Positions 61,500-64,000 of a stretch of DNA of 64,000 bases are shown piece by piece (the first letter of the stretch is position 1; each line of letters opens with the position of its first letter). Source of the DNA: a virus; IMG/VR virus record IMGVR_UViG_3300045988_118131; one strand, written 5' to 3'. The translations under genes and the position numbers were made by a program. The notes below the pieces were generated by a model. It had not been told where the DNA came from, searched no databases, and was given only the letters and a program-made list of their open reading frames with translations.

Positions 61500-62699
61500 T
61501 TAATAGTTGTTTTGAATTATTTTGTTTAATAATCTATGCTTAGTAGTATATTCTTCCTTACATATAAATTTACTATAATCTGGAGCTATGTCCACTACTT
61601 CATATCATCTTTTAGAAATCATATTAGCATATTTCTTTCTTATATTATAGGATTCGTATTTACCTAAAAACCCATAGTAGCTATTAAGAACGCTTATGAA
61701 ATGCTCAGCTTTTTCTGCTGGATAATATTCATATTTCTCAGCTAGATCGTTGAATTTAAATATAGTTTGATGTAAGTATGCTACTGTCCTGTTTGCAGAA
61801 TATTTAAACTTACCTTTAACTACAGCTCCTATAAATTTACAACCTTTCTTATAATATTGAATGTATAATTTCTTAGGGTGTAAAACTATTTTAAGATTAT
61901 CTTTTAAGTAATTTCTTATTCACGGAACAGAATCTAATAGTAGTTTTTTGTCTTTACTTATTACAAAGAAGTCGTCTACATATCTGCCATAGTATTTGAA
62001 TTTCTCTACCATTAGTTTGTCAAAAGTATTCAAATAAAAATTAGCAAACATTTGACTTGTTAAATTACCAATTGGCAGTCCATAATCTTTGTCTACAGTA
62101 AATAAAGATTTATTAGCTGGCAAATCATCTCACATGAAATCTGGAGATTTTCTAATACAATTGTTTTGAGGGCAATTGTTTACAATTTTTGTTACTAGTT
62201 CTAGTATTATATCAACATCATCTTCTTTATAATTTTCTTTTATAAAAGTTATTAACATTTTCAATAAAGTAGGTTTGTGGATAGACATAAAAAATCCTTG
62301 CAGATCAAATTTAGCAATGTAACAAGGTTGAGTGTAGTTTTCACTACACTCTTTTACTTGTTCATGAAGTCTATTTATTCCGTATAGAGTTCCTTTCTCT
62401 ACTCTACAATTGTAATTGTCTTTTATAAATTCTCTCTCAAATAAGGGTTCTAATCTTAACATAACTAAATGATGTACAACCCTATCTCTGAAATCAGCTG
62501 CAAATACCTCTCTCTTTTTAGGTTTAGTTACTATAAATGCTATACTTCTTCCTATCTCATAAGTTCCATCCATAATATCTTTGTATAGTTTAGCACATTC
62601 TATTTCCCAATTTATTTCAAATTTTAATGCATTACAAGTATTTCTCTTATTTTTTCTGCATTTGTAATAAGCAGAAATTACATCCTCTAAAGCAATCAT
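61500..62699 (-). CDS. DGR reverse transcriptase (399 aa with TGA as sense)
   Basis: ORFs 62130..62699 and 61920..62123 and the open frame down to TAA at 61500 are joined by TGA at 62130, 61920 and 61605. Motifs: FAADFRDRVVHH, LPIGNLTSQMFANFYLN (the DGR-type IGxxxSQ) and YGRYVDDFFVIS (YxDD). Confidence 0.85.
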
Positions 62700-62724
62700 A
62701 CAATATAATTAGGGCACTTAAAGA

Positions 62725-63121
62725 ATATCAGGGACGACAGTAGAGGGTGAAGTTCTTATCGTTGTTGTTGATGTTCAGTGTTGTTATCATAAAGCATTTT
62801 ATTCTTTATTTCATATAGTTTTCCATTCTATATGCTCAGACTATATCTTTATCCTAACAGGATAATGGGCGCTCGTGTTAGTATTATGTTCTCTTAAAAT
62901 TTAATTCGGATTTTTCTTTTAAATGGTAAGAGTTTCAACTATTAGTCGTTGAACCTTCTAAAGTTGTTAAGCTCTAGCTTGGCTGCTGATTGTCCATATT
63001 AATAGGAGGATTTCCAGCAATTCACCCATTTTTCTAATATTCATTACTGAATATTGAGGCTTGTTTAGTAAACCACTATCTCAATTCAATTTCCACGCGT
63101 TGTTCGACGAGTACTCCGTTG
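62725..63121 (-). repeat. DGR template repeat (TR), split: 5' part 63072-63121, 3' part 62725-62775
   Basis: When joined, the two parts give 101 nt collinear with the VR at 63746-63846. 91 of 101 positions are identical, and all 10 mismatches are at TR adenines (minus-strand sense). Confidence 0.9.
62776..63071 (-). ncRNA. ORF-less group I intron (296 nt) inside the DGR template repeat
   Basis: The boundaries are fixed by collinearity with the VR. The upstream TR segment ends in U and the intron ends in G. Core elements: P GAAUUGCUGGAAA (63011-63023), Q ACAAUCAGCAGCC (62981-62993), R GGUUCAACGACUAAUAG (62939-62955), S AAAGAUAUAGUCUGAGC (62834-62850). P2 is AAUAUUCA-GUAA-UGAAUAUU. P4 is UGCUGG/UCAGCA. 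Confidence 0.85.
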
Positions 63122-63312
63122 CGTTCTTACGATTATATTGTCTTAGCTATTTCGTGTATTTTTATATATAATTTTTGTAATATTTTTACACGGGTCTAGC
63201 ACGTAAGCAGCTTCTTTAAGTTTGTTTAAAATAAATAAATAACATCTTACTCTAAACTTAGGCTCCTCCTAGCATAACCTTAGTCACACTAGCTCTATTT
63301 TATATATTGTTG

Positions 63313-63693
63313 TTAAGATGCTTGCATACATAAGCATTCCTCTATATTAGAGAAATGTTGAACGAAACGTGCTTGTTGTTGATAACTTATCAACTCTTTT
63401 TCAAAACTGGCTCTTATAAGTATTTTTACCGTTTCGTATTTAACCCTATATTTTTCTAGACAACTTTGTCTAGTATTAGGATTTTCCCAGTTTTGATGAG
63501 CTAGCGCCAAATAGGCTACTAGCTCACAACTATTATCCATAATTCTGTCTCCTAATGTAAATCTTGAGTTTTTAGGAAACGTTTCTATACATCCTATTAC
63601 TTCTAACATAAACTTATATGTTTTCTCATATAACGGTAAGCTTTCTATCTTACTTTTCATGTCATATTGCTCTTTTGTTTTAGTTTTTAACAA
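63313..63693 (-). CDS. avd: DGR accessory variability determinant (Avd)-like four-helix-bundle protein
   Basis: 115-126 aa, located between VR and TR as in canonical DGRs. The motif FPKNSRFTLGDRIMDNSCELVAYLALA is typical of the Avd / S23-intervening-sequence protein family. The start is probably the ATG at 63658-63660. Confidence 0.7.
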   Translation of the reverse strand: MLKTKTKEQYDMKSKIESLPLYEKTYKFMLEVIGCIETFPKNSRFTLGDRIMDNSCELVAYLALAHQNWENPNTRQSCLEKYRVKYETVKILIRASFEKELISYQQQARFVQHFSNIEECLCMQAS

Positions 63694-63736: not shown

Positions 63737-64000
63737 TTATAGTACATATCAGGGACGACAGTAGAGGGTGAAGCGCTTACCGCTGCTGATGATGGTACCA
63801 CTATCTCAACTCAATTCCCACGCGTCGTTCGACGAGTACTCCGTTGAAGCCCAATGATAACCTGTAAGCATAGCTGTACCTCCAATTTTACTTAGAGCAC
63901 TATCTACCTGAGATTTATTATTATAAGCTGTTTGTCATTCACCCAAAGCTGGAAGGTATCCTTTTCTATTTTCACCCCCAATATTAATGGACTTCGATCT
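63737..64000 (-). CDS. DGR target protein, C-terminal part (partial; gene continues beyond the window)
   Basis: Translation: ...NRKGYLPALGE[TGA]QTAYNNKSQVDSALSKIGGTAMLTGYHWASTEYSSNDAWELS[TGA]DSGTIISSGKRFTLYCRP[TGA]YVL-TAA. This matches the DUF1566/C-type-lectin-fold pattern of DGR variable proteins (YWSSTE..NAW.VNF.NG....K....VR.V). Confidence 0.8.
63746..63846 (-). repeat. DGR variable repeat (VR)
   Basis: 101 nt at the 3' end of the target gene. It differs from the spliced TR only at 10 adenine-templated positions (for example AAC to GAC, ACC, ATC, AGC or CGC). Confidence 0.9.

Follow-up and report, generated by a model that had tools for sequence, protein, structure and literature searches.

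Near the end of a 64,000-nucleotide stretch of viral DNA (IMG/VR record IMGVR_UViG_3300045988_118131; its full length is termed 'the window' from here on), the minus strand carries what is recognizable as a complete diversity-generating retroelement (DGR), composed of a target gene with its variable repeat (VR), an accessory gene (avd), a template repeat (TR) and a reverse transcriptase (RT) gene. The TR of this element is divided into two exons by a group I intron, which is very probably spliced, so that mutagenic copying would read an RNA in which the exons have been ligated. The anatomy of the locus, the families to which the intron and the DGR proteins belong, the exact position of the junction, and the adenine-specific diversification of the VR on both sides of that junction can all be read directly from the window and its relatives. 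An active DGR, resident in a TGA-recoded 'Zeta' crAss-like phage of the Lera or Echekvirus type, offers the best explanation of these observations. Both components are already well known, as is the splicing of a TR intron prior to reverse transcription; their natural, fixed and working combination appears to be undescribed.

The split template repeat and its contiguous counterpart

A repeat search of the window returned two direct repeats, one of them pairing positions 63072-63121 with 63797-63846 (94% identical, at a spacing of 725 nucleotides) and the other pairing positions 62725-62773 with 63746-63794 (88% identical, at a spacing of 1021 nucleotides). The two spacings differ by 296 nucleotides: one copy of the repeat forms a single block of 101 nucleotides, while the other is split at 63071..62776. 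Because the contiguous copy is located at the C-terminus of the upstream gene, it is the VR, and the split copy (which is rich in AAC codons) is the TR. When the two are aligned pairwise, all ten of their differences fall at TR adenines, three of them in the 5' block and seven in the 3' block. The intron starts with UUACU after the exon sequence ..GUGGU, and ends with ..CACUG before an AAC. The elements concerned are:

63746..63846, minus strand: VR, 101 nucleotides, contiguous (from alignment to the split TR and the repeat search)
63072..63121, minus strand: TR exon 1, 50 nucleotides, CAACGG...GATAGTGGT; its final U pairs with a G in the intron helix P1
62776..63071, minus strand: group I intron, 296 nucleotides, without an open reading frame (ORF), from the RF00028 match and a check of its helices
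62725..62775, minus strand: TR exon 2, 51 nucleotides, AACATCAACAACAAC...CTACTGTCGTCCCTGATAT; positions 62743..62751 are VR-like

The same locus was compared across a lineage set of 14 genomes, made up of the window, the IMG/VR contig 7000000317_000001 (L001-L003), OGMN01000019 (L004), L005, L006 and L013-L022, the last being ten contigs that encode exactly the RT protein of the window. The intron (296-298 nucleotides) is found at the same site of the TR in all 14, and is identical in nine of the ten contigs that share the window's RT protein, with a single substitution in the tenth (L013). The surrounding TR is of one 'canonical' sequence in 11 of the 14 genomes; that of L006 has diverged, and those of the window and L019 are VR-like at the 3' end. 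The VR is different in every genome examined, and the eight loci among L013-L022 in which the canonical TR is intact hold eight different VRs.

Comparison of the 16 VR variants present in these 14 genomes with the ligated canonical TR gave 253 mismatches at adenines and three elsewhere (253 of 256). Variable adenines were found in both exons (12 of 16 in exon 1 and 17 of 22 in exon 2, across the 16 VRs), with changes extending as far as position 7 of exon 1; the two-sided diversity that an earlier, sequence-only reading of the window had described for a single VR recurs across the whole set. The junction is seamless in every one of the 16 (GGT|NN C). At the first two nucleotides past it, A, C, G and T all occur across the VR set, while the T that precedes it is invariant. 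This variation indicates that the two positions are templated by the AA of exon 2, rather than by the UU at the start of the intron, and in combination with the invariant T it fixes the junction at GGU|AAC, exactly at the splice sites of a group I intron. The claim of the sequence-only reading that the VR would have been rewritten from ligated-exon RNA is supported by this exact junction.

Further evidence is provided by L006, in which the TR has diverged at positions other than adenines in both exons (GAT to GAC in exon 1; ATC to GTC, and GTCGTCCC to GTCGCCCT, in exon 2). The VR of L006 contains the same lineage-specific non-adenine bases as its own TR, and this tracking of both exons indicates that information has passed from each of them into the VR within a lineage that bears the intron.

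The IMG/VR contig 7000000317_000001 (L003, positions 1-300; the ends of L001 and L002) opens with three different copies of the VR joined by Ns, and terminates within the VR. This arrangement, which might be misread as a tandem triplication or as the terminus of a genome, looks like an assembly or scaffolding artefact of VR heterogeneity within the sample. The presence of three VR copies in one contig implies that no fewer than three haplotypes were present together in the sample. Diversification by the DGR is ongoing in populations.

The TR of the window is itself atypical at its 3' end, where it reads TTCACCCTC, the same as its own VR, and 11 other genomes have AACACCAAC; at positions 62743-62751 the window has TTC ACC CTC, as compared to AAC ACC AAC in those 11. 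The three and seven adenine-site differences that were counted in the sequence-only reading hold against the window's own TR, but that TR is not typical, and against the canonical TR the VR of the window displays 14 adenine-site changes (three in the 5' part and 11 in the 3' part). In L019 (around positions 1465-1475) the TR holds the TAT codon of its own VR, including a C-to-T change. The VR-like bases at the TR 3' end in these two genomes appear to stem from separate events, in each of which VR or complementary DNA (cDNA) sequence was transferred into the TR. Misassembly was considered as the source of the VR-like tract in the window and judged to be unlikely, its upstream join (AAGAAC|TTCACC) having no k-mer in common with the VR. 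The final 19 nucleotides of the TR and the VR are identical, with the flanks diverging immediately beyond, and therefore nothing within the repeat marks the TR as a non-target.

Two smaller observations concern the same repeats. Two TGA codons are contained within the TR and VR (TR positions 39-41 and 96-98), and their adenines are invariant in the 16 VRs. The TR of L017 (around positions 1480-1500), counted among the 11 of canonical sequence, is without 11 nucleotides (ACTGTCGTCCC) at its 3' end and the corresponding VR has a non-adenine mismatch (C to T); this locus may be a decaying copy of the DGR.

The insert as a group I intron, its conservation and its origin

The Rfam covariance model for group I introns (RF00028, Intron_gpI; gathering score 50 bits) matches the minus strand at 63081..62823 with a score of 71.5 bits (E=3.9e-18, model positions 1-253), in a scan that covered positions 62600-63300 (701 nucleotides), and the corresponding match in L006, the most diverged relative, scores 74.5 bits. 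The covariance-model hit to which the sequence-only reading had pointed as a check of its intron was thus obtained, above threshold, in the window and in L006, but scans of the whole 64-kb window (in both gathering and E-value modes) missed the intron. These misses are an artefact of sensitivity, because the speed filters tighten as the scanned sequence grows, and other introns of this intron-rich phage group may be missed likewise by genome-scale scans. The sequence on either side of the intron gave weak Rfam matches (bxd_4, MALAT1, mir-651, RT-9 and others) that were far under threshold and were taken as chance. The RT-9 motif, the family of which is associated with reverse transcriptases, was matched at 63212-63294 on the minus strand, in the spacer between avd and the TR; its score of 16.5 bits (E=8) compares with a threshold of 46.1, and the match is most likely due to chance.

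The covariance model sets the 5' splice site directly behind the U of the U·G pair in P1. The helices of the intron were verified base by base, and are positioned as follows:

P1, minus strand: exon GGU plus intron UU against AAGCC at 63062..63058 (intron positions 10-14), with a U(-1)·G12 wobble
P2, 63055..63036, minus strand: 8-base-pair helix with a GUAA loop
P3 (AAUGGGUG/CGCCCAUU), 63030..63023 and 62871..62864, minus strand: canonical pairing
P4, 63019..63014 and 62989..62984, minus strand: canonical pairing
P7 (GACUA/UAGUC), 62947..62943 and 62843..62839, minus strand: canonical pairing
P7.1/7.2-type hairpin, 62932..62891, minus strand
P8, 62863..62851, minus strand: canonical pairing
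P9, 62834..62812, minus strand: canonical pairing
P9.1 (a further 3' hairpin), 62809..62789, minus strand: canonical pairing
Terminal G (omega-G), 62776, minus strand: boundary fixed by the VR junction

A minimum free energy fold recovers helices P2 to P9 (z=-3.5 against shuffled sequences), and the insert was confirmed to contain the strings given for P, Q, R and S as well as a P2 capped by GUAA; for these motifs, as for its coordinates and its difference counts, the sequence-only reading was accurate. Its description of the insert as devoid of ORFs is likewise upheld, the longest open frame being of 34 codons even when read with genetic code table 4. An extended hairpin of 70 nucleotides is located between P7 and the 3' strand of P3, the position occupied by P7.1/P7.2 in phage introns of subgroup IA, and this P7.1/P7.2-type hairpin suggests that the intron belongs to that subgroup. 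Searches with blastn related the P3-P7 core to annotated phage introns, including the dUTPase intron of Carjivirus communis (which contains an HNH gene), and the same P, Q and R strings are found in at least 120 IMG/VR loci. A search of the window with the intron (using nhmmer) found no second copy, and an exact-pattern scan for the P4-P6 stretch matched only the same phage.

The origin of this arrangement is indicated by relatives in which the RT is about 60% identical to that of the window (L007-L012). These display the same order of target, avd, TR and RT, with a TR that consists of one block of 98-118 nucleotides; the gap between the avd and RT genes is about 265 nucleotides, versus about 615 in the intron-bearing lineage. 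Their TR aligns with the ligated TR (..AACGCGTGGATATTGAATTGGTCTAACGGC|AACGTGAACAACAACAATAAG..), such that the intron site falls between GGC and AAC, and the intron-less relatives for which the sequence-only reading had proposed a search are therefore represented by a contiguous TR at the homologous place. As read from this alignment, the TR was once contiguous, and the intron entered it between the codons GGT and AAC. One possibility is that it arrived by homing into either the VR or the TR, and that the VR was subsequently cleaned of it by spliced cDNA. A screen of 80 phage DGR RT loci (68 of which contained a direct repeat of at least 30 nucleotides in the stretch that was fetched) found no intron core and no split TR, and among 120 screened loci, from the at least 120 phage loci with the P/Q/R core, none had a DGR RT or Avd nearby; both screens being empty, there is no second, independent case of an intron in a TR among the loci that they covered.

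Between L006 and the window, the intron has diverged by 3.0%, avd by 3.4%, the RT gene by 5.8% and the adjoining non-coding spacer by 11.5%; more generally, the avd-TR spacer is 8-12% diverged between lineages, as compared to 1-3% for the intron. Three between-lineage substitutions keep or create base pairs (C to U in P7, giving G·U; A to G in P9, giving G·U; and C to U in P1, giving A-U), and the G-to-A substitution of L013, in P6, breaks a pair. The low divergence of the intron and its retained pairing are, in this small sample, consistent with selection on the ribozyme.

Proposed mechanism and its alternatives

In the mechanism that is proposed here, the TR would be transcribed together with the intron, which would then be excised after the U of the P1 U·G pair and after the terminal G, to leave a contiguous template of 101 nucleotides. 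A complex of RT and Avd would start downstream of exon 2 and cross the ligated junction into exon 1, with misincorporation opposite adenines during copying, and the resulting cDNA would replace the VR. In the DGR of Bordetella phage, cDNA synthesis begins 3' of the TR (PMC5703328, PMC6182149). Given such a start, information from exon 1 cannot arrive in the VR unless the RT passes out of exon 2 and into exon 1, for which a ligated junction is the simplest way. The removal of the intron would be autocatalytic, and reverse transcription would follow splicing, as opposed to some other way of skipping the intron.

Several points weigh against this mechanism. The P1 helix is short (five to six canonical pairs), and no convincing P10 was seen, the 3' exon (AACAUC; in L006, GAUGUC) showing no complementarity to the bases on the 5' side of the guide; these are the sole weak points of the intron assignment. 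P10 is dispensable in many group I introns, and for that reason membership in the group stands. The assistance that ribosomes are known to give to the folding of some phage introns would not apply here, because the TR is untranslated. The TR of the window, in being partly VR-like, implies that some information flows towards the TR as well. The search for a contiguous TR extended to an exact 18-mer across IMG/VR and to as many as three mismatches only within the window. Finally, splicing itself is deduced from DNA.

This last point leaves room for a mechanism without splicing, in which the RT would copy exon 2 and then jump to exon 1 (by a template switch, or through the recombination of two cDNAs), given that reverse transcriptases are capable of switching templates. 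Such jumps, however, would have needed to generate the same seamless junction in every one of the 16 VRs, each time precisely at the sites marked by the U·G pair and the terminal G, between boundaries (..GGU|UUAC.. and ..CUG|AAC..) that are without microhomology to guide them, and across an insert that is a complete and conserved ribozyme core scoring above the Rfam threshold; we regard this as highly improbable. A second, contiguous TR might alternatively be located elsewhere in the genome (of about 178 kb, of which 64 kb was read directly) and act as the real template, the split copy being a relic, and DGRs with a remote TR or remote targets do exist. Against this, the window contains no copy of the ligated junction even when three mismatches are allowed, an exact 18-mer of that junction is found nowhere in IMG/VR (a near-identical genome of 175.6 kb included), and the repeat search of the window found no other TR-like repeat, in agreement with the sequence-only reading, which had named the split copy as the VR's one homolog there. 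The annotation of the Lera genome places TR segments only beside the RT, and the split TR is AAC-rich and has unmutated adenines in 11 of the 14 genomes, as would be expected of a working template. The existence of such a hidden TR therefore merits next to no credence.

The possibility that a recent insertion of the intron inactivated the DGR, and that the differences between TR and VR on both sides predate that event, draws on the fact that the order of events is unreadable from a single genome such as the window, and also on L017, where the deletion from the TR and the non-adenine mismatch suggest that some copies may be decaying. The larger set of genomes, however, argues strongly in the other direction: the loci of L013-L022 all carry a near-invariant intron, yet those with an intact canonical TR hold a different VR each; at least three VR haplotypes are found in one sample; the intron is common to lineages that are 3-6% apart in nucleotides; and the VR of L006 follows its own TR at non-adenine sites of both exons. 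Inactivation by a recent insertion is accordingly judged to be extremely improbable. A variant of the splicing mechanism, in which the intron is removed only with the help of a phage or host protein (a chaperone or a maturase-like factor), would accommodate the short P1, the lack of an evident P10 and the untranslated exons, and many group I introns require such help in vivo; but the core of the intron is complete and close to those of well-studied self-splicing phage introns, and the intron encodes no protein. A strict need for such help seems unlikely.

Beyond the splicing of the intron from the TR, a more speculative proposal is that the intron is a maintained part of the DGR, such that splicing licenses the template and couples diversification to the folding of the intron, to the level of guanosine triphosphate or to the stage of infection; we offer this tentatively, as a rather unlikely extension. 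If it were true, the homology between TR and VR would be broken at the level of DNA, and the damage done by mis-targeted cDNA or VR sequence would be limited to the 3' part of exon 2 (as in the two genomes described above). A DGR could by the same arrangement move or delete a group I intron: the VR would receive the intron from unspliced cDNA, and the TR would lose it when spliced cDNA homed there. That splicing gates the activity of the DGR, as the sequence-only reading had suggested, is plausible. Among the questions raised are whether diversification is limited or timed by splicing, how one RNA accommodates both a structured intron and the RT-Avd complex, and whether introns can be gained, lost or spread by DGRs.

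The remaining cassette, the host phage and known systems

Read downwards from position 64000 on the minus strand, the locus contains the 3' end of a large gene, a gene of 115 codons, a non-coding stretch of 613 nucleotides (in which the split TR is located) and an RT gene of 399 codons. The features beyond the repeats and the intron are:

63737..64000, minus strand: 3' portion of the tail-fibre gene targeted by the DGR, which runs off the window; stop codon TAA at 63739..63737
63313..63660, minus strand: gene for the accessory protein Avd, 115 amino acids (NCBIfam, PHROG and Pfam matches)
63122..63312, minus strand: spacer between avd and the TR, the segment with the highest divergence between lineages; the TR transcript presumably has its 5' part or its promoter here
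61500..62699, minus strand: DGR reverse transcriptase, 399 amino acids, in table-4 translation, with three in-frame TGA codons (Trp)

The RT contains the motifs IGNLTSQ (GxxxSQ) and YVDD in table-4 translation, and matches Pfam RVT_1 and PHROG 1423 (E=2e-80); its closest solved structure is that of the Bordetella phage DGR RT (8ub7, E=1.3e-24), and 6908 homologues were found at E<=1e-20. The avd gene adjoins the RT gene in all 18 contigs that were fetched. Its 115-residue product matches PHROG 3206 ('Avd protein of DGR', E=4.7e-12), Pfam bAvd (E=2.4e-7) and NCBIfam NF033474 (DivGenRetAVD, E=3.9e-12), the last at 46 bits, under the 80-bit equivalog cut-off. The target gene, in table-4 translation, terminates with ...CRPWYVL*, and its homologue in L013-L022 was called at 712 amino acids. 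The last 33 codons but three are taken up by the VR, which encodes the C-terminal sequence ..TEYSSNDAWELSWDSG|TIISSGKRFTLYCRPWY. In the Lera phage, the target is annotated as a tail fiber protein of 2139 nucleotides (Table S1 of PMC12386605), and a C-type lectin-like domain has been reported for it (PMC12386605).

TGA is a sense codon (Trp) in this phage: under table 4 the longest frame in the window grows from 2116 to 2785 codons, and the RT gene, because of its three in-frame TGA codons, is open throughout only when table 4 or 25 is used. Human gut data commonly contain the host phage, the exact RT protein of the window having an entry in 218 blocks of the collection index. The INPHARED phage database contains no close relative of the cassette.

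The window almost certainly represents the same lineage as the Lera phage and ct1yV3 ('Echekvirus', Zeta crAss-like; PMC12386605, GenBank PV725988). Both share the use of TGA for Trp, an RT gene of 1200 nucleotides, avd, the 2139-nucleotide tail-fibre target and a downstream gene of 999 nucleotides. In the Lera genome the segment named TR1 is located 26 nucleotides from the RT, exactly like exon 2 in the window, and TR1 and TR2 are 289 nucleotides apart while VR1 and VR2 overlap, which is the same split. The blocks were read by the Lera authors as independent TR-VR pairs (TR1, TR2 and a putative TR3), with no mention of an intron (PMC12386605). The suspicion of the sequence-only reading that a split TR may mislead the annotation of DGRs is realized in this listing, and the published multi-TR annotation of Lera and ct1yV3 is corrected by the present one. 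The third pair was rejected for the window, where the corresponding segments (63149-63200 and 63862-63913), even at the offset that suits them best, agree at no more than 22 of 52 positions, a similarity no better than chance level; the A-rich spacer probably gives a chance appearance of adenine mutagenesis in 'TR3/VR3'. Two blind spots are exposed by this case, in that programs for finding DGRs presume a contiguous TR, and genome-scale Rfam scans overlook this AT-rich intron.

In most other respects the cassette resembles canonical phage DGRs (BPP-1, those of gut Bacteroides phages, L007-L012 and L145-L223). It shares with them the gene order of target with VR, avd, TR and RT, an RT with GxxxSQ and YVDD motifs, an AAC-rich template, adenine-specific mutagenesis and a VR at the C-terminus of a receptor-binding protein. 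It differs in that the canonical TR is one block, whereas that of the window lineage consists of two exons 296 nucleotides apart, and also in the identity of the last 19 nucleotides of the window's TR and VR, with no difference between initiation of mutagenic homing (IMH) and IMH* sequences visible within the repeat; in DGRs, directionality is given by an IMH in the VR and a mismatched IMH* in the TR. The intron has the same ribozyme core as other phage group I introns, both crAss-like (the Carjivirus communis dUTPase intron) and of the T4 td, nrdB and sunY type. Those introns interrupt protein genes, often together with a homing endonuclease, whereas that of the window interrupts the non-coding template of a retroelement and has no ORF.

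The nearest precedent is an engineered one. Guo et al. (2008) reportedly placed the td group I intron into the TR of Bordetella phage BPP-1, as the sequence-only reading had stated. The existence of that construct is confirmed by a later account that made use of it again (Naorem et al. 2017, PMC5703328): the td intron, which served as an experimental tag within the TR, undergoes splicing, and reverse transcription then proceeds on the ligated exons. Both cases present a group I intron inside a DGR template, with the same kind of phage core (P, Q, R and S). Unlike the td construct, which was a laboratory tag with added exon sequence, the intron described here is natural, is inserted at a codon boundary, is found in 14 of 14 genomes and is accompanied by VRs without extra sequence. 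Full-text searches of the literature, within a coverage that leaves most subscription journals outside, brought up the engineered case and papers in which the two elements are mentioned separately, but no description of a TR that is naturally interrupted by an intron. If the preferred reading is correct, wild phage genomes repeat the engineered experiment that was the first to show that DGRs act via RNA, and would offer natural evidence that mutagenic retrohoming reads processed RNA, each VR serving as a record of ligated exons. A ribozyme intron and the template of a retroelement, each a textbook case of an RNA-based element, would then be joined in one functional unit.

Exchange between related cassettes is suggested by L005, in which the RT gene is 16% diverged from that of the window, as compared to about 1% for its avd, TR and intron; this pattern suggests a recombination breakpoint near the boundary between the TR and the RT gene, and hence the exchange of an RT between related cassettes.

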